The notes beneath the pieces were generated by a model. It was not told the DNA's origin. It worked only from the letters and a program-made list of their open reading frames with translations, and did no database searches. This document shows positions 2,221-61,630 of a DNA stretch of 64,000 nt, piece by piece. This stretch comes from Ostreococcus lucimarinus (Eukaryota). The position numbers and the translations under genes were made by a program. Every line of letters begins with the position of its first letter. Position 1 is the first letter of the stretch. The stretch lies in NCBI GenBank assembly GCA_000092065.1, contig CP000599.1; one strand, 5' to 3'.

Positions 2221-2658
2221 AGGATCATCACCGAATGCATGGGATGATCGCCGAGTGTGAAACACGTTAGTCGTTTGTTAGATAGAGACAAACCACATCA
2301 CGCGAAACCGCGTCGCGCGCGACCGACGCGCGAGCCTCGAGTCGAATTCAAATTCCTTCGGTCCCCTCGTCAGCTCGTGACTTGAAACGACCGTTGTCGA
2401 CCGCGAGTCAACGCGCGTGAATGTAAACACGCAAACAGTCTCACATACACATACACAAGGTGCCGACCCGTATCACAGACTAAAAACCCACACAGTATGT
2501 GTATTTATACGTATAATAAAAATTAGATGGCATTTGCCAGCGCATCGCCAGCGCATCACGCCGAATGTCCGAACCTTCCATTTTATCGCGCCACACTGGT
2601 TATCTGGTAACAGGTTATAATTTCTTTGAATACGAGGCGTGTCGACCCGGTCGACGCA

Positions 2659-6726: not shown

Positions 6727-9700
6727 CTACCGCGCGCGTAATTCGTTAATTTTAAGCGTGAGATAGGCGGTGACGTCGTCGGAGGCCGGTGGCATGGACT
6801 CGGCGATGTAGACCAAGGTGGCGATCTCGCGCGCGGTGGCGCCGGCGCCGTCTAAGACGGCGTCGAAGACGCGCTCGGCGGCGGCCAAGGATACGGCGCC
6901 GGATTTCTTCACCGAGGCGTCCGCGATCGAGAGAGCCTTGTCGTCGTATTTCGCGCCGTCGATGACGCGGTATTGCTTTGAGGCGGATTTTGTGAGACCT
7001 GATTCGATCTCTTCGCGTCTGGCGTCGATTCGCGGTTGTAAATACGTCGCCGCGGCGTCGCTGAGGACGTAGGCGTATCGACCGCCGCCGCCGGCGAGCA
7101 CCAGCGCCAAAGTCTCGAGCTCGATCTTCGTGATTCCGGCGCCGTCGAAGACGCTTTCGTAAATTTTTTCCGCGCCGGCGCGATCGATTTCGCCTCTTTC
7201 CGCCATGAAAGTGTCCGCGAGGCACAGAGCGGCGTTGTCGTACCTGACGCCGCCGACGGTGCGATAGAATCCTTGAGGCGCTTTACGCTTTTGCGCGCGC
7301 TGTTGCTGCGTCAAAGCGTTCTTTTCCGTCAAACGTGCGTCGCGCAGTCGGGAACGGAGCTCCGCAGCGAGACCCGTGGCGTCGAGACCGCGCGCTGCGC
7401 ACTCGGCGATGAGTTCGTCGCGCTTCATTTTGCTCAACGCGGTGAGCGAGGACGGTTCGAAGACGATCGCCGGGCGTTCCTCACTCGCGGCGTCAACACC
7501 CGGCGAGGAGGTTTCAGTGCTGACGATTACGGGCGTCGGCGTCGATGGTGCCGGCACCTGCGCTCCGCTCGCGCGTTCAGCCGCGGTTTCGGCTTTCGCC
7601 GCGCGTTTGGCCAGAGCCTCCGTCTTGGCTTCGGCTTCCTTGATCGCAAGCGTCGCCGATGAAAGCTTGGCTTCGAGCTCTTCCAACTGCGTCGCGAATC
7701 GAGACTCGGCTTCCGCTAAATCGCTCGCCGCACGCTCAGCGATCGTCTGCGCCTCGACCGCAAATTCTTCTTGGGCTCGCTCGCGCGCAACATCGGCGTC
7801 GTCCTCGGCAGCGGCGAGCCGCGCCTCCATGCGTGCCAAATCTGCTCGCAATTCTCGCTCGACGTCGTCATTCAACGCGCTACTCGATGCCTCAACCTTT
7901 GCTCGCGCTTCCGTTAAGTTGCGCGTCAACTCGTCGCGCTCGGCGGCGATTGCCGCGAGCGCCGCCGCAGCCGCTTCCTGTTCGCTTCTGAGCTCGCGCG
8001 CCAGTTCGCTCGCGCGATCGTCTGCTTCGGCTAGCTTTCGCTCCAACTCATCGCTCATCGAACGCAGGCGCGTCGCCTCGGAAGCTTCAGCCCTGGTGCG
8101 CTCGATTTCATCTCTCAACTCCTCCTGCTCGAGTTCAGCGATTCGAAGTTTCTCTCGCCATGCGTTTTCTGCGCGTCGCGCGTCGTCGCGCGCGGCTTCG
8201 AGTTCAGAAGCCTCGACGAGACTCGCCGTCTTCGCTTTGAGGGCTTCAAAGCGCGCGTTGGCTTCGCTCGCACGGCGCTCGGCGTCGGTGAGTTGACCTT
8301 TTAAGCTCTCGAATGCCTCCGCCGCAGACGCGGCGGAGAGTTCGCGCGCTGATCCTTCTTCGACGAGGCGCTCTATGTCGCTCACAAGGCCGTCAGATTT
8401 GCTCGTTTCCTCGACCAATCGCGCGTCGACTCGGGACTTTTCTGCACGTAAGCGCTTGATTTCGACTTCTAGTGCGGTGAAGCGCTCCTCCACTTGCGCG
8501 ACGGCTGTTCTCGCCGCCGCTACGTTTTGTTCGCTCTGCGACATGGCGTCGTCGATGGATTTCTTGGACTCGGCGTACGCACGATCGACCTCGGACTTTT
8601 CGGCAACTAATTCATCGTACTTTGCTCGAATTTCGGCAATTCGCGCTTCAGATGAATCCACCGCCGTCGCAAGCTTTGCTTCGCTCACGCGTAAAGCCTC
8701 CGCAATGCGCTCGCGTTCTTTTTCAGACGCAACGGCGTTTTCTGCCGCCTTTGCTTCCAATTCGGCGAGAGCATTACGCACGTCATTTCGCTCTTCAACC
8801 AGGCGGTCGATCTCACCTTGTCGACGCAATGCTTCGTTTGCCGCGGCGGCGTTGATAGCGTCCTTTTCAGCGCTAGAAGCCGATTTCAAACTCGAGATTT
8901 CACTCGCATACGTGCGTGCACTCTCGGAAGCGGCTTTCTCCGCCTTGTTGAGCTCGTCGGTTTTAGCTTGCAATTGCCCGCGCAAAGTTTCGCACTCGGC
9001 TCGCGATGCATCCAGCGCCGTAGAATCTACCGCATTTGCGAGTTCACGCTCAAACGCACTCTTTTCCTCAGTCAATCTCGCGACGGTTTCTTGTAACTTT
9101 GCCATATCGCTTAACCGCGCGTTTTGCTCGCCGTCGAGTCGCGACTGTGCCGCCGCCTTTTCTTCTTGAACTCGCGCGAGCGCTTGACGCAATTCGAGCG
9201 CTTGCGATTCCGCGCGAGCTTCGGCACTCTTGAGCGTCTCCAGCGCAGATTCCTTCTCTGCGCGAAGTCGCTCAATCTCGCTCTTCATTTGCTCCTTCTC
9301 CGCTCGGCTCGACTCGTTGAGCGAACGCTCCATCTGAGCAACGGAGTCTCGCATCTCTTGCAGTTGTGCTTGCGCTTGTTTAGTTTCCGCGGAAGCGGCG
9401 TCAAGGGCTCGCGACATTTTGAGCGTCGCGTACGATTGCTCGTTCGCGCTTCTCGTTTCGAGTTTCGCCTCCACCTTGGCGAGTGCCGCGCGCGCGGTCG
9501 CGGCGTCTTCCATCGCTACTTCGGCTTCGCGCTTGGCGTCGTAGAGCTCTCGCGCAGTTTTGTCTTCATCGAGCAAAGTCGCAAATTGCTTCTCCAATCT
9601 TGCTGAATTTTCAATAGCCTTCTTCGCGTCAGCTTCGAGATTCTTGATCCGCCGCTCTTCGTTGGCGTATTGATGCTCGAGTTCGCGACGACGTTGATCC

Positions 9701-15459: not shown

Positions 15460-16602
15460 CTAACTCGACGCGTCGTCCGAACGTTTCTCTCGCGCGCCGA
15501 TGAACGCCGACATTTCCACCGCCGCCGTTCGAGTCGGCGACGCGTACGCGTCGTCGTCGTCGTCGTCGTCGTCGTCCATCGTCGCGCGCGTGAGCACGAC
15601 GAACCCATCGCCCGCGGCTCGAGCCCCGCCCTCGTCGTCGCCCTCGTCGTCGTCGCTCGCGAAATCGACGTCGTCCGCGAGATCTCCCAACCCCGTCTGC
15701 GCGTCCTCCGCGCCGACCCCCCGCGCTCGCGCCGAGAGCCGCGCGCACCCGAACGCCGTCGCCAACTCCACCGCCATCTCCCCTCGCGCCGGGTGCGCCA
15801 ACACGAACACGATCGCGTGCACCGCCCCCTGCGACGTCTTACACGCGACGTGCGCGCACGCGAGCCACAGCGCCGGCTTCGCTCGCCCCGCCAGCGTCGA
15901 CGCCCGCAGCGCCGTCCCCGGCACGTTCGTCACCACCTGCGCGATCGGGTACCACGCCAACCGTCGCACGTACGTCCGCAATCGCGCGTGCGCTCGCCGC
16001 GCCGTCGCGTCGTCGCGCCCCAACGTCGCCTCGAGCGCCGCCGCGCTCGCCATCCCGCGACGAATCGCGCGCCAGCAGCGCGCGTTGTAACAAAACGCCG
16101 CCCAAATCGGGACGTAATAAAAAACCAACCGGATTGTCGCCGCGCGCCTCCCCTCCGATTTCACGTGACACCGCCCCAGCCTCGAATCGCCGTACGCGTT
16201 CGCGAGCATCGGCGCGAGCGCCGACGCCGCGCACGCCGTCCACGCGAATCCGTCCTCGCGTCGCGCGTCGCCCCTCGCGCGTCCCGCGCGCAGGCTCTCC
16301 ATCAGCGCCCGCGACACGAGCGCCGCCCACACCGCGCCGGCGACGCCGAACGTCTGTATCAACGCGCCCTGCAAAGCGCAGATCGCGCCGCCGCGCGCGC
16401 CGCGATCGCCGAGCGCGCACGCCGTCGAAAACATCAAATCGCTCAGCGCCAATCGTTTCACGTACGCGTACGTCCTGCCGCGCGTACTGCGCGTCGCGAT
16501 CGCGCCCGCGAGGAGCACGAACGACGCGCCGGCGATCGACGCCGCTGAAGCGACGCGGTTCGTCGCGCGCACGATCGCGCGTTCGTCGGGCGTCCACGAC
16601 AT
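15460..16602 (-). CDS. 7TM receptor-like protein (cAMP-receptor/GCR1-type GPCR family, tentative)
   Basis: Starts MSWTPDE at 16602 and has seven hydrophobic segments. Family-like landmarks are CALQGALIQTFGVAGAVWAA, RLVFYYVPIWAAF, LAWYPIAQVV and SQGAVHAIVFVL. The tail is acidic and poly-Asp. The upstream part of ORF 15460..17727 is non-coding. Confidence 0.6.
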   Translation of the reverse strand: MSWTPDERAIVRATNRVASAASIAGASFVLLAGAIATRSTRGRTYAYVKRLALSDLMFSTACALGDRGARGGAICALQGALIQTFGVAGAVWAALVSRALMESLRAGRARGDARREDGFAWTACAASALAPMLANAYGDSRLGRCHVKSEGRRAATIRLVFYYVPIWAAFCYNARCWRAIRRGMASAAALEATLGRDDATARRAHARLRTYVRRLAWYPIAQVVTNVPGTALRASTLAGRAKPALWLACAHVACKTSQGAVHAIVFVLAHPARGEMAVELATAFGCARLSARARGVGAEDAQTGLGDLADDVDFASDDDEGDDEGGARAAGDGFVVLTRATMDDDDDDDDDAYASPTRTAAVEMSAFIGAREKRSDDASS

Positions 16603-16827
16603 TGTGGATTGAAAATTCGCGATCCGATGATTCGCGTCGCGATCGCGCGGCGTTCGGTTCGACGCGCGTCTCGATCGTCTCGGAACGTGTTCGCGATCGT
16701 TTACGACGCGTCGACGCGTCGACGCGCGGCGCGCGCGCGGCGCGATCGCGCGATTCGACGCGGGGGCGATCGATCGACGGCGGTGATTCGCGGACGCGAA
16801 CGCGAACCGTCGCGATCGGACACTCGG

Positions 16828-16905
16828 GTATAGGTATTGTGTTTCATATGATAAATATAATGTATAGAACGTGATAGTAATAAAAGGTAGTCGTATATAT
16901 AGGAT
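16828..16905. promoter_or_regulatory. AT island between divergent 7TM (-) and USP (+) genes
   Basis: ggtataggtattgtgtttcatatgataaatataatgtatagaacgtgatagtaataaaaggtagtcgtatatatagg. Confidence 0.4.
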
Positions 16906-16956
16906 GCACGTCGTGCGCGACGGCCGGCCGCGACGGTTCGCGCGACACGACGACGC

Positions 16957-30430: not shown

Positions 30431-30672
30431 TCGAGCGCCGTCCATCGTAAAAAATGTATTAGCGCGCTTGTAACGCCGGCGCACGCTAGCTCGAACCGCG
30501 CGCTTCGATCGCGCGTCCCGTCCCGCGTCCCGAGCGCGTCCCGAGCGCGTCCCCGTCCCGCACACCTCGACGTCTCGCGACGCCGCCGCGACGCGTCGCG
30601 CCGCGACGACGCCGACGTCGACGACGCGCGCGCCGAGCGTCGCGAGACGCGCGAACCGCGCGATCGCGCGCG

Positions 30673-41810: not shown

Positions 41811-42743
41811 TCACGCGGAGGGCGCCAACGCGAGGACGCCGCACGCCAAGCGCTGCGCTCGCGTAAACCGAAGCGATCGATCGTCCGTCAGTCGAAAGCC
41901 GCGTGCGCGAAAAACGAAACCCTAAACGCGCGTCGAAATCGCGTCGCGTCGAGTCGCGATCGTGGAAATCGCGTCGAAATCGCGTCGTCGACGCACCGCT
42001 CCGGCGTTGCCCGTCGTCTTCGACGTCTTGCCCTGGGTGCCGATCTCAGAGCTATCGCCCTTGCCGAGATCGTCCTCGAGCTCGTGAATCACGAACGCGC
42101 GTCCGATGATCGAGTTCGCCCCGCTCAGCGGAATCTGCGAGTCCTCGATGACGAAGTCGCACCCGCCCGCGGTGGCCTCGACGTTGCCGAGGTCGCCCGC
42201 GTGTCGCGTCGCGTCCGTCGGCGCGCCGTGATCCATCTTGTTCGGGTTAAAGTGCGGTCCCGTGGACATGCACCCGTTCGTCGTATCGCCGAACTCGTGA
42301 ATGTGCAGGCCGTGCTTGCCCGGCGCGAGTCCGGTGATGGAGCCGACGACCTTCGTCGGCGCGTCGCCGCTCTGGCTCAGCTTGAGCACGCCCGACACCC
42401 CCGCGGTGCCCGTGAGCACGCACACCGCCTGCTTTTGCTCCGCCGTCACCGCGACCGCGCGAGGGCGATGCGCGGACGTCTTCGTCGACCTGCGATCGCG
42501 CGCGCCGGCGTTCGCGCGCGCGTCAGTCGTCGCGTTCGTCGCGGGTTTAGGTTCGTCGCGTCGTCGCGCGTCGTCGCGCAGCGCGTCGCTCGAGCGCACC
42601 GCGCGCACGCGCACTTGGCGCCGCAGAGGTGGGTCTTGGAGGCGAGCGTCGCCGATCGGGAGAGCGTCTGCATGGCGCGGCGTCGGGCGTCGTGTGTCGG
42701 CGATGACGTGGCGAGGGCGCGAACGCGCCCTCGTCGCCATCAT
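41811..42743 (-). CDS. CSD: Cu/Zn superoxide dismutase with long N-terminal presequence, two exons (41997..42743 and 41811..41852)
   Basis: [23 protein letters not shown]...HAGDLGNV...[16 protein letters not shown]...TTGNAGA in exon 1. Exon 2 supplies the canonical end [13 protein letters not shown]. Start MMATRA at 42743. The rest of ORF 41922..43901 is antisense to CCS. Confidence 0.9.
41853..41996 (-). other. Spliceosomal intron (144 nt) near the 3' end of Cu/Zn-SOD
   Basis: GCG|GTGCGT donor, TTCGACTGACGG branch, GAGCGCAG acceptor. The intron carries TTTAGGGTTT, whose TAG ends the unspliced frame at 41922. Confidence 0.85.
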
Positions 42744-42751
42744 TCGAGGGC

Positions 42752-42897
42752 CTTTATATACGTATATTTCGTAGAAATATACTTTATATTCGGAAACATG
42801 TCGTATGGGTATTGTGTCTGTGGTTATAATTGGTAGTATCCGAATATTCGGACACACGGCGTATGCGTATTGTGTATATACACATAATTGGTAAAAG
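42752..42897. promoter_or_regulatory. AT-rich island in the SOD/CCS divergent intergenic region (putative bidirectional core promoter)
   Basis: About 145 bp of TA/TG/CA-rich sequence in an otherwise CG-saturated context. It contains TATACGTATA (42757-42766), four CGTAT motifs and the palindrome TCCGAATATTCGGA. Confidence 0.4.
42839..42852. promoter_or_regulatory. 14-nt perfect palindrome TCCGAATATTCGGA, with an extra direct half-site ATATTCGGA at 42786-42794
   Basis: Read directly. It is self-complementary across all 14 positions, and the half-site recurs 50 nt away. Confidence 0.35.
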
Positions 42898-43070
42898 TCC
42901 GAGCGCGCCGACCGTCGGCCGCGCGCCGCACGTCGCGACGCGCGATCGCGCGACGCCCGATCGCGTCCCGCGCGACGCCCGCGGACCTTCTCGACGCCTC
43001 GACCCGATCTTAACCGCCCGCGACCCGCGCGCGCGACACCCGAGGCGTCACGTCGACGACGACGCGCGTC

Positions 43071-44033
43071 ATGATTCCGTCGACGCCGCGCCTTCGCGCC
43101 GCCGCGCCGCGTCGCGTCGTCGACCGCGCGTCGCGATCGCGAACGCGGTCGCGATGCCGACGCGCGCTCGAACGCGCCGACGCGCGGACGAAAGACCTCG
43201 AGCGGGCGTTGGAATTCATGGTGGAGATGCGGTGCGGAGGGTGCGCGGCTAAGGTGACGACGGCGTGCGAGGCGCTCGCGGGCACGACGCGCGTCGACGC
43301 GTCGCTCGGGACGAACACGGTGACGGTGATCACGCGCGATGCGGAGCGAACGGTCAGGGAGGCGATCGAGAGCGCCGGGTATAAGGCGCGATTGATCGGG
43401 CAGGGGCGCGCGGAGCGAAGCGCCGAAGACGACGACGATTTCGGCGAGGCGCTGGCGGAGGCGCTGGGCACGGACGTGCGGACGCTGCGACAGAGCCTGG
43501 CGGCGGTGGCGGAGTTTAAGGGGAAGGCGTACGGGCACGGTGAGGCGCGAGGGACGGTGCGGCTGGTGCAGGTGAGCGAGGAGACGATATTGGCGGAGGC
43601 GGCGCTGGACGGGTTGAGTCCGGGGGCGCACGCGATTCGCGTGCACGAATACGGGGATTTGACGCGCGGGATGGATTCGATCGGGGACGTGTACGGGGGG
43701 GAGGGAGGGGCGGGGATGATCGGGATCGTCGTCGCGGACGAGAATGGGTCGGCGACGATGCCGTCGACGATGTTGAGCTCGGAGCTCAAGGCGTGGGACG
43801 TCATCGGTCGAAGCGTCGCCGTGTACGCCGCCGCGGACGGCGATACGACCGGCGCGGTGTGCGCCGTGCTCGCTCGAAGCGCGGGCGTGGGGGCGAATCA
43901 TAAAAAGTTGTGCCAGTGCGATGGGACGATCATCTGGGAGGCGGGCGAAGATTTCTTGCCCCGCGCGGTGGACGAATGCGACGCCGCGAGACCGCTGCTC
44001 GGCAAAGGAATCACCACCGCTCGGCGCGGGTGA
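43071..44033 (+). CDS. CCS: Copper chaperone for superoxide dismutase (CCS)
   Basis: HMA domain with MRCGGC metal site ([21 protein letters not shown]), a central SOD-like domain (GTVRLVQV...[12 protein letters not shown]...IGRSVAVY), and a C-terminal CxC motif ([12 protein letters not shown]). Confidence 0.88.
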
Positions 44034-44121: not shown

Positions 44122-46803
44122 TCACTTGATCTTGATGAGCGAAGGGAGCTTGACGCCGTCGATGGCGCGTTTCGCCTCGGCCCACGTCTTCGTCGTTCGC
44201 GGCGGCGGAGTCGGCGGCGGCGGCGGCGCGAAAGGTCTCGGCCGCGGTATCACCATCGTCGACTTCTTCGGCGGCGCCGCGGGCACGCTGGACGATGGCT
44301 GGTTTTCTTCGTGCGTCTTGCTCGACGGCGGCGCCGCGAGCGCCGGCGAATCGTTCGTCTTCAACGCCGGGAATTCCTTCAATCGCGACTCTCGATCGAC
44401 GGCGCTTTCGGCGTCGCTCGAGGGGGTCGCGGACTCGGACGTCGATTGCGATGCGACTTTCGGCTTGGGTGGAAAATCCGGTAGCGCGGACAGCCCCGTC
44501 GGCGGCGGAGGCGGAGGCGGAGGCGGAGGCGGCGCGGCGGCGGCGACGGCGGTCGATCTCGGCGCCGGGATGCGCGCCGGCGGCTTTCCACTCGGCAACG
44601 GCGGCGGATTCGGTGGCAGCGGCGGTGGATTCGGCATCGTCGCGACGGTTGGTCTTCGAGGCGCATCCATTTCCTTCGCGAACGTCGGTCGCGGCGGCGT
44701 GTTGGGCTTCCTTCGCGATCGCGCCGCCGTCCACTCGCCGCCCGAATCCGAATTCGCCGCGTCTTCGAGCGTCGGTTCGGGGGTCTTCGATCGCGGCGTC
44801 GTCGGCGCTTCGGGTTCGTCCTCGGCGTCGTCAGCGACGGTGATTTCATCGCGCTCGACGTCGCGCGCGACTTTCGTCAGCGCTCGCTTCGCCTTGGACG
44901 ACGAAGATTTCCGTTTCTTCTTCGAAGACGCGCCGCCGGCGGATCTCTTAGAGTTGGCGTCGCCGCCGCGGAGAACATCGTCGTCATCTTCGAACGCCTT
45001 GAGCGCAGCTTCCAAACGCGCGTCGTCCAGTGCTTTAACGTGCTCTTTGACCGCACCGCTCACGACTTTCACGAACGTCGCGCACTTTGCGAGTTCGATG
45101 CCGTACGCCAAGTGCGCGCCCTCAAGATTGAGCGCTCGAACGACGCGGTCGACGACGCCGTCGAGGGCGGTGGATTTGTACCTGTCCATCACGGGTTGGA
45201 TTCTTCGATGCAAACCTTCGACATCGTAATTTGTCGACGTCGCGCCGGCGTTCGTGGAGGAAGCGCCGCCGCTCGCGGCGGAAGTGATGGCTCGAAACGA
45301 GCGCTTTAAATCCCGCATGACGTCTCGCAGGATGACTTTGACGTCGAGCGCACGATCGGCGTACGCCTTGTCGACAACGCGCGACGAATCACCGTCACAC
45401 GAGTTCAACGCTCGCGTCGCCAGCACGCATTCTTTGGCGTGGCGCTCGATCTCTTTCGCGCTCGGTGCCGCGACGGCGAAAGAATTCCTCGCGTGATCCA
45501 AATGCTTATTCAGCACGATTTCCAGCGCCTTGGAATCCCCGGGCGGCGTCACGTGCTTGTAACACATTTCGTTCTCGCGAAGATAAAACCGCGTGCGCTT
45601 CTCGGCCAGACGGAATTCTTCCACACCCAGCTCGAGCGCCGCGGTGACGTCGCGAAATTCGCACCAGGCGCCGAGCGCGCGCGTCAAGAGCTCACGTCGC
45701 TGAATCGCGAGCAAATCCGCGTTGTCGTCGCGCACGAGCTCGGCTAGCTCAAGCATCGCTCGTTCGGCGTCGCGCTGCTCGGCGAGCCAAGACTTGACGA
45801 GGTTATGAACGCTTTCAGAAGTTTCGTCGTCCATGCGCCTGACGACGTCGAGATCGTGCGCTTGTTTAGCTTCATCCAATCCGCCCGAGGCGTCGACGAG
45901 CGGCGGCGCGGGCGCGTCGACGCTCGTGTCGAACTCGCGATCACCGAGCGTCGCCCGCGAATCGCGACGTTTGCTTCGAATCGTCGCGAATCGATGTAAA
46001 CACTCGAATCCTCGGCGCACCCAACGCTCGACGTCGACGTCGTCGCGTAAACCGATGGAATCCTCGCCGCGACGCGCGTAATCGCGCGCGTCTTCGTCTT
46101 TGACCAAATCCTCGTTCGCGCGACGCGGACGTCGCGCGTCGTCGTCGTCGTCGTCGCCACCGCCGACCGCGTCGACGACCGCACCGCCGCTTTCATCGAC
46201 CGCGAGCGCGCGCAACGTCTCCATCGCCGCCGCGAGCGCGTCCGAAGCGTCCGTCCCGCGTCGCCCCGTCGCCGTCGTCTGCGCGCCTCGACGCCCCCCC
46301 GACCCCGACCCCGACCGTCCCATCGTCCCCATCGACGCCTCCGCGCCCACCGCGCGTTCGATCGCGCGTTCGATCGCGCGCACCGACGCCGCCGCGCGTC
46401 TCCCGCGCGCGCCCACCCGTCTCGCCACCGCGCGCGCGTCCTCCTCCGCGTCTCCCTCCCCGTCCACCAGCATCGCCGCGAACGCCCCCCGCGCCGCGTC
46501 ATCGTCCCGCAGCATCGCTCGCAGCGTTCGATCGAGCGCGCGTCGCGCCCTCGATCGCGCGTCGTCGTCGTCGCGCGCCGTCGCGCGCGCCATCGCGGAA
46601 GACGAACCGTCCCTTCGATCGCCGTCCCTTCGCGCGCGTTCGTTCGACGCGCGTCGTCCGTCCTCGCGCGGTCGACGCGCGCCGCGCGCGCGTCCGTCGT
46701 CGTCGTCGCGCGCCGCGTCCGTCGCGCGCCCTCGATCGCGCGTCGCGCGTCGCGATGTCGCGCGTCGTCGTCGCGCGTTGACCCGCGCGTTGACCGTCGC
46801 CAT
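44122..46803 (-). CDS. Large hypothetical protein with Pro-rich C-terminal region
   Basis: 893-aa ORF with ATG at 46803. The N-terminus is Arg/Asp-rich, the middle is a structured helical region, and the C-terminus has [10 protein letters not shown] tracts. No family recognised. Confidence 0.6.
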
Positions 46804-46815
46804 CGTCGACGTCGC

Positions 46816-46985
46816 CCTATATATAATACGACGCGAAACCTCATATAATCCTCATCACGACACCCAACAGTCACACACACGTATGTCTCTCATCATTACT
46901 AAGTACCTTACGACTATATATACATATACCGTATGTCCGATATATGTTTATAGGTATCCGTGTACGTATATTAGTAAAATAACGT
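46816..46985. promoter_or_regulatory. AT island between divergent 893-aa gene (-) and AGPase (+)
   Basis: ctatatataatacg...cacgtatgtctctcatcattactaagtaccttacgactatatatacatataccgtatgtccgatatatgtttataggtatccgtgtacgtatattagtaaaataacg. It contains the 14-mer ACCGTATGTCCGAT at 46928-46941. Confidence 0.4.
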
Positions 46986-47415
46986 CGAGCATTCGACCGA
47001 CGTTCCTGAGCCAGTCGTTACGCGCGCCATTTTCCGCCGCGTCGCGAATCGCCGATGCGCGCCGCGTCCCTCGCGCAGCGCGCCGCGCTCGCGCCTCGCC
47101 GCGTCGACGCCGAGCAAAGGTGCGCGCGCGACGCCCGCGCGACCGCGACGCCCGATCGACCGCGAACGCGAACGCGCGAGACGATCGCGTCGCGACGGAC
47201 GGATCTCGACGAGACGCGCGACGGATCGACGCGAACAGCGCGCGACGACGCGCGCGAGCCGCGAGAGACGCCGGATTCAAACGCGTCTCGCGCGTCGTCG
47301 GCGTCGCGCGACGGATCGACGCGCGCGCGGCGCGAGGGCGGCTCGGGACGCGCGACGCGGGACGGAGGATAAGACGAGACGCGAGAGAGACGACGAGCGG
47401 ACGCGAGACTGACGG

Positions 47416-55656: not shown

Positions 55657-56940
55657 ATGGCGACGCGCGAAGGCGGCGCGAAGAAGAATCGCGGCGCGAG
55701 AATCGCGAAACCCTCGATCGACGCGACGATCGTCGGTGGCGCGTGCGTCGTCGCGCTCGCGGGACGCGCGCGCGCGGTGCTCGCGGGAGACGTCCCGTCG
55801 GGGGGCGGCTCGGCCGTGGACGGGTACTTCAACTCCGAGAGCACGCTGAAGAGCGCGGTGGACGCGTGCTGGAGCTCGTCGACGACGGTGAACGCGGCGT
55901 GCGCGGACGGCGCGGTCGGCATCGCGGATTGGAACGTCGGCGACGTGACGAGCATGCGTGACATGTTCTCCGAAAAGGAGGGCTTTAACGCCGACTTGAG
56001 TCGTTGGAACACGAAGTCGGTGACGACCATGAGTGCCATGTTCAACGGCGCGACGAGCTTCAACGGCGACATGCCGAACTGGAACGTCGAGAAGGTGACG
56101 CACATGACTCACATGTTCCGAGACGCGACGAGCTTCAACGGCGACATGCCGAACTGGAACGTCGAGGCGGTGACGAACATGGCTCAAGTGTTCTCCGGCG
56201 CGACGAGCTTCAACGGCGACATCTCGAACTGGAACCCGAAGGCGGTGACGGGCATGTATCGCACGTTCTACGGCGCGACGAGCTTCAACGGCGACATCTC
56301 GAACTGGAACGTCGAGGCGGTGAAGGACATGAGTCAAGTGTTCAACGGCGCGACGAGCTTCAACGGCGACATCTCGAACTGGAACGTCGAGGCGGTGACG
56401 AGCATGCGTGACATGTTCTACGGCGCGACGAACTTCAACGGCGACATCTCAAACTGGAACCCGAAGGCGGTGAAGGACATGAATCAAATGTTCCGAGACG
56501 CGACGAGCTTCAACGGCGACATCTCCGCGTGGAACATCCAAGCCGTTACGGACATGTCTAACATGTTCAACAACGCGCGGGCTTTCGCGCGAGACATCAC
56601 GGGCTGGAACGCGGCGGCGATCGCCGCCGCGCGCGACGCCACCAAAGTTTCCGGCATGTTCAAGAACGCCACGGCGTGGCGCGCGATCTACACCAACACG
56701 CAGACGTCTTACTTTTCGGCGAACGACGGCCCGCCGCATTTGTGGACCGCCGGCGCCGCCGCTCCCGGCGCCGGCGCCGCCGCTCCCGGCGCCTCCGTCG
56801 CAGACTTCCCCGAGTGGGGCGTCGCCCTCGTCGCCCTCTCGCTCGCGCTCTCCACGATCACGTCCATCGTCGTCATCGCGCGCGCGCTGTGCGCGCCCAA
56901 GATTCTCGTTCCCGCCGCGCGGTGGTCCGCGCGCGTCTGA
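55657..56940 (+). CDS. BspA-type / DUF285 leucine-rich-repeat surface protein with C-terminal TM anchor
   Basis: About nine 25-aa repeats F.GATSFNGDISNWNV.AVT.M..M. The C-terminus has an Ala/Pro linker followed by the TM segment WGVALVALSLALSTITSIVVIA. Start MATREGG at 55657. Confidence 0.8.
   Translation: MATREGGAKKNRGARIAKPSIDATIVGGACVVALAGRARAVLAGDVPSGGGSAVDGYFNSESTLKSAVDACWSSSTTVNAACADGAVGIADWNVGDVTSMRDMFSEKEGFNADLSRWNTKSVTTMSAMFNGATSFNGDMPNWNVEKVTHMTHMFRDATSFNGDMPNWNVEAVTNMAQVFSGATSFNGDISNWNPKAVTGMYRTFYGATSFNGDISNWNVEAVKDMSQVFNGATSFNGDISNWNVEAVTSMRDMFYGATNFNGDISNWNPKAVKDMNQMFRDATSFNGDISAWNIQAVTDMSNMFNNARAFARDITGWNAAAIAAARDATKVSGMFKNATAWRAIYTNTQTSYFSANDGPPHLWTAGAAAPGAGAAAPGASVADFPEWGVALVALSLALSTITSIVVIARALCAPKILVPAARWSARV
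55921..56680 (+). repeat. 75-bp coding tandem repeats (DUF285 modules)
   Basis: The DNA-level periodicity is visible: ...acgagcttcaacggcgacatctcgaactggaacgtcgaggcggtga... recurs every 75 bp. Confidence 0.85.
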
Positions 56941-61283: not shown

Positions 61284-61351
61284 CGCGCGCTCGACGCGCG
61301 CGCGGGAGCGCGGTCGCGAGGTCGGCGCGGCGCGCGACCGATTCGATGCGA

Positions 61352-61452
61352 TACTCCATCATGGGGTTAAAATATATTTATATATGTACTGGTTCGTCTA
61401 TGGGTTTGTGTGTATTTATATATGTACCGTATGTCCGATGTGTATATTTATG
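61352..61452. promoter_or_regulatory. AT island between divergent DEAD-helicase and bL19 genes
   Basis: ggggttaaaatatatttatatatgtactggttcgtctatgggtttgtgtgtatttatatatgtaccgtatgtccgatgtgtatatttatgtatag. It contains two TGTAC cores and the 14-mer ACCGTATGTCCGAT (61416-61429). Confidence 0.4.
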
Positions 61453-61630
61453 TATAGACGCACACACGACGCCATTCGAGGGTTTCGCGCTGTGCGACGC
61501 GCGACCGCACCTCGCGACGCGACGCGCGACGACGAACGACGCGTCGCGAAACGCGCGCGCACGTTTATTTACCGCCGCTCGACGCGACCGCCGAAGCTCG
61601 CTCGACGCGACCGCGACGCACACGCGGACG

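Follow-up and report, generated by a model that had tools for sequence, protein, structure and literature searches.

A candidate 18-nt bipartite promoter element in the AT-rich intergenic islands of Ostreococcus

Two identical 14-nt sequences found in separate AT-rich intergenic islands of Ostreococcus lucimarinus are, in our reading, probably near-consensus copies of a bipartite Ostreococcus promoter element of about 18 bp that is predicted to be a transcription factor site. Comparison of related sequences indicates that this is most likely a genus-level, previously undescribed candidate cis-regulatory element with fast turnover. Ostreococcus, the smallest free-living eukaryote, is transformable and serves as a model for minimal gene regulation, and to our knowledge few of its cis-elements have been defined beyond clock, E2F and MYB sites.

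Results

Two exact copies of a 14-mer in AT islands

The window analyzed here is a stretch of 64,000 nucleotides of contig CP000599.1 with a GC content of 64%, in which the 14-mer ACCGTATGTCCGAT occurs exactly twice, at 46928-46941 and 61426-61439. A previous reading of this DNA, made from the sequence alone, had placed both copies on the plus strand, which we confirm; its coordinates are right for the first copy and 10 nt off for the second, which it located at 61416-61429. The exact identity between the two sites extends over one extra base on the left, giving the 15-nt sequence TACCGTATGTCCGAT. As had also been claimed, both copies fall within AT islands, whose GC content is approximately 0.37-0.38:

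46818..46998, no strand: AT island, GC 0.37; common promoter core of the 893-aa protein gene and the ADP-glucose pyrophosphorylase gene
61334..61469, no strand: AT island, GC 0.38; between the helicase and bL19 genes, with TATATTTATGTAT at 61443-61455 right after the motif

Site 1 lies 115 nt 5' of the ATG (47056) of a gene for ADP-glucose pyrophosphorylase (AGPase; Pfam NTP_transferase and LbH_GLGC), in which this first ATG is followed by an intron, and site 2 lies 193 nt 5' of the ATG (61632) of a Ribosomal_L19 protein (bL19). Their left neighbors are minus-strand genes for an 893-aa protein (44122-46803) and a DEAD-box helicase (59367-61283/61362), respectively, such that Pfam assignments and gene positions uphold the gene context originally proposed. 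The window AGPase has 87% identity to AGPLU2 of O. tauri, and the gene order agrees with that of Ostreococcus contigs; a homologue search with the 893-aa protein returned matches only from the same species and one at 38% identity. The sequences said to follow both copies were partly borne out: TTTAT is present at both sites (46947-51 and 61447-51), and RTRTAT only at site 2 (GTGTAT), with site 1 reading ATATGT. Within the island at site 1, TATA-like runs flank the motif at 46913-46921 (minus strand) and at 46947-46954 (TTTATAGG), and the motif forms the center of an imperfect 15-nt inverted repeat with TATA-like arms at 46917-46931 and 46938-46952.

The identity of the two copies had been judged very unlikely by chance. 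Whole-window shuffles give 0.34 matches to the 14-mer at up to two mismatches, and 6 of 100 shuffles reach two matches. The 24 AT islands of the window total 2.9 kb, approximately 4-5% of its length, and a common sequence of at least 14 nt arose among them in 4.3% of dinucleotide shuffles (at least 15 nt in 1.0%) and in 15.5% of order-3 Markov simulations. Taken alone, the exact 14/15-mer identity is therefore only modestly improbable (P of about 0.01-0.05 in composition-preserving island shuffles), and because the islands consist of low-complexity, RY-alternating TA/TG sequence it is weaker evidence than had been assumed. The case gains strength once degenerate copies and data from other species are considered; it is from these, and not from the exact repeat, that the significance stems.

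Further instances of the motif in the window

A search of the window at up to three mismatches found three further sites, at 2560 (plus), 16815 (minus) and 42847 (minus), every one of them in an AT island. The mismatches of these three copies coincide in position and leave CCGNRTGTCCGA intact. This degenerate core has five matches in the window compared to 0.23 expected, a count reached by none of 100 shuffles, and all five fall within the listed AT islands, so that the core is over-represented in promoter regions relative to a composition-matched expectation, as a cis-regulatory motif would be. When the 18-nt position weight matrix (PWM) derived from the alignment described below is applied at a lenient 12 bits, the excess is modest, with six matches compared to 1.4 expected and a shuffle maximum of six. 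The instances are as follows:

46923..46940, plus strand: motif instance 1, CATATACCGTATGTCCGA; PWM score 23.1 bits; contains the 14-mer at 46928-46941; divergent promoter of the 893-aa protein gene (minus) and AGPase (plus)
61421..61438, plus strand: motif instance 2, TATGTACCGTATGTCCGA; PWM score 26.6 bits; contains the 14-mer at 61426-61439; divergent promoter of the DEAD helicase (minus) and bL19 (plus)
42848..42865, minus strand: motif instance 3, CATACGCCGTGTGTCCGA; 18.8 bits; divergent promoter of Cu/Zn-SOD (minus) and CCS (plus); within a 50-nt tandem duplication
42789..42802, minus strand: sixth, degenerate copy, GACATGTTTCCGAA; SOD/CCS island, in the tandem-duplication unit that does not contain instance 3
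16816..16833, minus strand: motif instance 4, CTATACCCGAGTGTCCGA; 14.6 bits; left edge of an AT island
2555..2572, plus strand: motif instance 5, ATCACGCCGAATGTCCGA; 17.1 bits; island 5' of an ammonium transporter gene

The island of instance 4 separates a membrane-protein-like gene (ATG 16593, minus) from a USP-like gene (ATG 16958, plus), and at instance 5 the neighboring genes are arranged in tandem rather than divergently. Overall, about one in five AT islands of the window bears the motif and approximately 19 of the 24 do not.

Several of these loci have other features of note. The genes for Cu/Zn superoxide dismutase (SOD, minus) and the copper chaperone CCS (HMA and Sod_Cu domains, plus) form a divergent pair (41922-44033) around a single AT island (42731-42896), which contains a perfect 14-nt palindrome, TCCGAATATTCGGA, in addition to the tandem duplication, whose units (42786-42835 and 42844-42893) are 80% identical. 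Species B and C retain this gene pair; in O. tauri SOD and CCS do not lie next to each other. The island at 16.8 kb (16801-16942) is bracketed by 19-nt inverted repeats, CGCGAACCGTCGCGATCGG and CCGGCCGCGACGGTTCGCG, that are 89% complementary and 104 nt apart, and which may be coincidental, the sequence being CG-rich, or may mark a former insertion. The region preceding the ammonium transporter gene (2536-2820) contains two perfect tandem repeats, one of GCCAGCGCATC (two units, 2536-2557) and one of GACACGTCGTTTCGC (two units with ACGT cores, 2659-2688), the latter with an inverted copy at 2691-2701; the first exon of the gene seems to be a micro-exon of 4 nt (ATGG|GTGCGT at 2808), after which comes an intron of about 360 nt. 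Finally, ARAGORN called two tRNA genes in the window (Phe, 98 nt, 16575-16672; Pro, 82 nt, 30489-30570), both in GC-rich sequence and of odd length and anticodon position. The Phe call runs into the 5' end of a coding region, Rfam gave no tRNA at either, and both calls are probably false positives.

The motif across Ostreococcus species

Comparison loci were obtained from homologue look-ups. Two belong to the species of the window (L189, with a helicase of 98% identity; L064, 95% DNA identity), one is from a sister species, S (L190, helicase with 86% amino acid identity), two are from O. tauri, T (L001 and L192), and the others represent at least five further Ostreococcus lineages, designated B (L002-4), C (L005-7), D (L008), E (L193-5), G (L202) and H (L203-4). 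In addition, we included a syntenic locus of 66% GC that is probably from Micromonas (L196). The comparative sample is small, comprising the 64-kb window and about 120 kb of largely syntenic loci, and the contig L053 was retrieved via the 14-mer itself.

We screened all 7-mers in the AT islands of about 186 kb of non-redundant sequence (groups W, S, T, B, E, C, D and F; at least seven Ostreococcus species) without reference to the motif, using an order-2 Markov model trained on the islands for expectation. In this unbiased screen TGTCCGA ranked first, being found in 11 islands compared to 2.05 expected and in seven species groups. An alignment of 17 island instances, anchored on TGTCCGA alone, yielded an 18-nt bipartite consensus, TAYGTNCCGNRTGTCCGA, which corresponds to TAYGT-N-CCG-N-R-TGTCCGA. 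Positions outside the anchor are strongly biased relative to the AT-rich background, including A at -10 (14/17), G at -8 (13/17), C at -5 (12/17), C at -4 (15/17), G at -3 (14/17) and R at -1 (17/17), as well as T at -11, Y at -9 and T at -7. The motif can be read as two TAYGT(N)CCG-like tandem half-sites approximately 9 bp apart, with ACCGTATGTCCGAT comprising the spacer and the 3' half. The PWM scores of the two 14-mer sites are the highest or near-highest (26.6 and 23.1 bits), and their identity over 14-15 nt would follow from both lying near the consensus rather than from one having been copied from the other.

Divergent promoters account for 12 of the 17 aligned instances. A TATA-like hexamer begins within 10 nt 3' of the motif in seven of the 17, and we therefore rejected an obligatory adjacent TATA. 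An exact copy of CCGTATGTCCGA is present in species B at a non-orthologous promoter, where simple arithmetic predicts about 0.007 such matches in approximately 120 kb on both strands. Scans of public collections with the exact 14-mer returned mostly chance matches, as expected for 14 bases, and yielded L064 and L053. Among the metagenome matches listed, most were chance matches from soil and gut and only these two were relevant, and all 60 matches of the viral scan were unrelated, with no prasinovirus among them.

Conservation and turnover at orthologous promoters

At the helicase/bL19 promoter, the core CCGTATGTCCGA is identical at 12 of 12 positions between the window and the sister species (L190), compared to 56 of 94 (59.6%) for the rest of the island, an outcome with a probability of about 0.002 at that background identity. 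The motif thus leaves a phylogenetic footprint, conserved at an orthologous promoter whose flanks have diverged. Other blocks conserved in this promoter between the two species are the TATA-like ATATTTAT, a GC-rich leader segment and a telo-box-like block:

61478..61489, plus strand: telo-box-like block, GAGGGTTTCGCG; 3' of the motif and the TATA-like run; kept in the sister species

The position of GAGGGTTTCGCG 5' of bL19 recalls plant telo-boxes in promoters of translation-apparatus genes, and AAACCCT/AGGGTTT, a sequence like the telomere repeat or telo-box, takes second place among the enriched island 7-mers (7 compared to 0.95 expected).

Among the four other species covering the helicase/bL19 promoter, three have the motif there. 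In the more distant species E (L193) and O. tauri (L192) it is on the opposite strand, in two copies in the latter, and the promoter of species H (L203) is without it. The divergent radical-SAM/RING-RWD promoter carries the motif in species B (L002), G (L202) and H (L203), and the corresponding region of the window does not. In the window, a DUF285 (BspA-like) gene (55657-56940, E = 2e-98) stands between the RING/RWD and radical-SAM genes; the syntenic loci of other species have no DUF285 gene call there, and at this position B, G and H have the motif-bearing divergent promoter. In species C (L005) and E (L193) the motif precedes a Pyr_redox gene, to which it is antisense, and the genes on either side of it are arranged in tandem. 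A strict sense orientation relative to the downstream gene is ruled out by these flipped and antisense cases.

By contrast, the motif is missing from the promoter of the AGPase ortholog in O. tauri and in species B, C and D, and from that of the SOD ortholog in B and C, which points to turnover. Orthologous promoters thus give a divided answer with respect to the two original sites, the motif being absent from AGPase promoters in four other species and present at bL19/helicase in three of four. Its absence from the AGPase, SOD and L203 helicase/bL19 promoters further indicates that it is not essential for those genes. This pattern of gain and loss is that expected of a putative transcription factor site under selection where present and subject to rapid turnover, and frequent loss and gain between species is also known for other Ostreococcus promoter motifs (PMC10662239). 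The AGPase promoters do share a different sequence, GCCA(G/C)TCGTT(A/G)C, which lies about 40 nt 5' of the start codon (window 47010-47024; L001 near 9903; L002 near 9487) and, unlike the 14-mer, is common to the window, O. tauri and species B; it is a putative conserved footprint of the AGPase promoter or leader. Outside the genus, the probable Micromonas locus retains the gene order (pseudouridine synthase, Skp1, bL19, helicase, radical SAM, RWD) and has no TGTCCGA in 21.7 kb and no comparable AT islands, which suggests that the AT-rich island architecture itself is Ostreococcus-specific.

Discussion

A predicted transcription factor site in compact promoters

Recurrence in islands, both in the window and in other Ostreococcus species, together with conservation in the sister species against a diverged background, supports the suggestion of a shared cis-element made in the sequence-only reading. 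We propose that the AT-rich islands serve as compact, mostly bidirectional core promoters that host the element, and enrichment and conservation together suggest that it is recognized by a sequence-specific DNA-binding protein. Given the length of the motif and its tandem half-sites, this protein may bind as a dimer in tandem or by means of several DNA-binding domains. Binding would occur at the level of DNA, often beside TATA-like sequences, and would modulate one or both flanking genes independently of orientation; the antisense placement in L005 and L193 and the orientation flips between species argue for such DNA-level action. If so, a motif of this length and specificity would provide a handle for finding the binding factor, a marker of promoter turnover between cryptic species and a candidate part for synthetic promoters.

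Alternative explanations

The element may have no gene-specific primary role. In this case an Ostreococcus-specific general regulatory or architectural factor would recognize the 18-bp element and organize ultra-short bidirectional promoters through nucleosome-free regions, insulation or even replication origins, a scenario to which we assign an outside chance. At the window density, a 13-Mb genome would then contain roughly a thousand sites. A general regulatory factor site (maintaining a nucleosome-free island, or insulating) or a replication-origin consensus would account for the apparently high density of five per 64 kb, the preponderance of copies in bidirectional promoters, the irrelevance of orientation, the heterogeneity of neighboring genes and the long, bipartite form of the motif, whose layout, CGT-N5-RTG, is also that of the yeast Abf1 site. 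Against it, most AT islands of the window are without the motif, which is also lost from orthologous promoters whose AT island remains, and we consider this explanation improbable.

The sequence-only reading had emphasized that both 14-mers precede likely plastid-protein genes, and a cis-element coordinating the expression of nuclear-encoded plastid proteins, in response to light or the diel cycle for instance, would fit AGPase and the organellar-type bL19, both plausible plastid proteins, as well as the daily cycling of many Ostreococcus genes (PMC2850359). The full set of neighbors is nevertheless functionally mixed, comprising the ammonium transporter (Amt), SOD/CCS, USP-like, membrane-protein-like, AGPase, bL19/helicase, radical-SAM/RING-RWD, oxidoreductase (Pyr_redox), pseudouridine synthase and ASH-domain genes, and in this small, heterogeneous sample no enrichment of plastid-targeted genes is apparent among motif bearers. 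Since these neighbors have no common theme, the plastid link is left unsupported. Moreover, the motif is missing from the AGPase promoter in four other species, the element at the bL19 promoter points toward the helicase in two species, and there is no match to the light-quality motifs of RCC809 (GATATTT, GGATAG, CGATTC, GTTCCCC and CCACGTGG). A plastid or diel regulon is accordingly doubtful in our view, although a wider physiological program among motif-bearing genes may still escape a sample of this size.

A relic of mobile or duplicated sequence, either a MITE-like element or promoter fragments spread by segmental copying and having no function of their own, is less probable still. Two observations are in its favor, namely that the 50-nt tandem duplication in the SOD/CCS island includes the motif and that 19-nt inverted repeats of 89% complementarity bracket the 16.8-kb island. 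Against it, similarity between any two sites ends at about 18 nt, local tandem duplication excepted. On terminal repeats the picture is mixed: none common to the sites and no target-site duplications were found, with the 19-nt repeats bracketing one island (16801-16942) and not those at the two 14-mer sites. The aligned instances share only about 18 nt, without the extended homology of a dispersed repeat or MITE. In addition, the motif is kept while flanks diverge, can be oriented differently from one species to another at a given promoter, and has near-identical cores within unrelated flanks in unrelated species. The common mobile or duplicated origin suggested for the two sites is thus not supported, their flanks beyond approximately 18 nt sharing only TA/TG low-complexity sequence, and exact repeats in these AT islands are better taken as motif instances than as mobile DNA.

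Coincidence within low-complexity, TA/TG-rich, RY-alternating islands, in which a 14-15-mer and a few variants at three mismatches arise by chance, gains something from the frequency of shared 14-mers in the shuffled and simulated islands (4.3% and 15.5%), from the approximately five matches at up to three mismatches that arithmetic predicts for 128 kb of uniform sequence and from the many unrelated chance matches in the metagenome and viral scans. It does not readily explain why all three extra copies sit in the 4-5% of the window occupied by AT islands with mismatches at the same positions, why the core has five matches when 0.23 are expected, or why TGTCCGA heads the 7-mer ranking across species. 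Copies confined to islands, enrichment in several species, conserved positions flanking the core and the 12/12 footprint in the sister species all make pure chance unlikely, and we rate coincidence as very improbable overall.

Least credible, to the point of being nearly negligible, is a signal acting at the RNA level, or a component of a small RNA gene or of a type 3, snRNA-type promoter. This idea draws on L053, a 99.5-kb marine metagenome contig (60% GC) in which, at 8509-8622, an exact 14-mer copy follows a tRNA-SeC gene (anticodon UCA) by 14 nt, and on the reverse-strand reading TCGGACATACGG, which loosely resembles TCCCACATCG, the upstream sequence element (USE) of land plants. The USE of O. 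lucimarinus, however, is CCCRTAA (PMC8287931), no Rfam family matches the window at gathering score and the motif sites show only sub-threshold miRNA noise; as far as they can be tested, a snRNA-type USE and a small RNA gene are rejected on these grounds. Orientation flips and antisense placement likewise speak against a transcribed signal. In L053 the motif is followed by a T-run and by a protein-coding gene that starts about 66 nt downstream in the sense orientation, and for this reason the tRNA-SeC link appears incidental.

Comparison with known elements

We compared the predicted transcription factor site with several classes of known elements. ACGT-core elements of plants, of the bZIP/HY5 type, include the A-box TACGTA and the Z-box ATACGTGT. 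The 5' half of the motif reads TACGT(A/G/C) in about nine of 17 instances, but both 14-mer sites have TATGT or CATAT in its place, and the invariant TGTCCGA has no ACGT core within an asymmetric motif of 18 nt. Resemblances to SBP/GTAC, P1BS (GNATATNC), DRE (CCGAC), AuxRE (TGTCNN) and HSE were also considered, each of which fits single instances only. Type-3 snRNA promoters share the arrangement of a short conserved element a few nt 5' of a TATA-like run, but they differ in the sequence of the USE (CCCRTAA; PMC8287931) and in that the genes downstream here are protein-coding rather than snRNA genes.

Within the genus, motifs described in Ostreococcus promoters include the CCA1/evening-element GATATTT, the MYB motifs GGATAG and CGATTC, the E2F motif GTTCCCC and the bHLH motif CCACGTGG (PMC10662239). 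These are likewise located in upstream regions of about 250 bp and are frequently lost and gained between species, but none is contained in the 18-nt consensus, which is much longer. In the searchable literature Ostreococcus was not paired with TGTCCGA or TCGGACA. Piganeau et al. 2009, reportedly a dedicated phylogenetic footprinting study in Ostreococcus, lies outside that coverage.

A functional likeness may also be drawn to the general regulatory factor sites of yeast, Abf1 (CGTN5RYGAY) and Reb1 (TTACCCG). Like these motifs of compact genomes, the Ostreococcus element is long and bipartite, with a 5-nt spacer after CGT, and lies in AT-rich, short and often bidirectional promoters of the kind that are nucleosome-free in yeast, where it accompanies many functionally unrelated genes in either orientation. 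It differs in having ATGTCC where Abf1 has RYGAY and in being carried by only a minority of islands, and we know of no homologous Abf1/Reb1-type factor in green algae. Should the element nonetheless prove to be the site of a general factor, it would represent an independent, green-algal invention of the yeast Abf1/Reb1 solution; as a predicted transcription factor site, it is instead a functionally ordinary kind of object, a lineage-specific candidate cis-regulatory motif.
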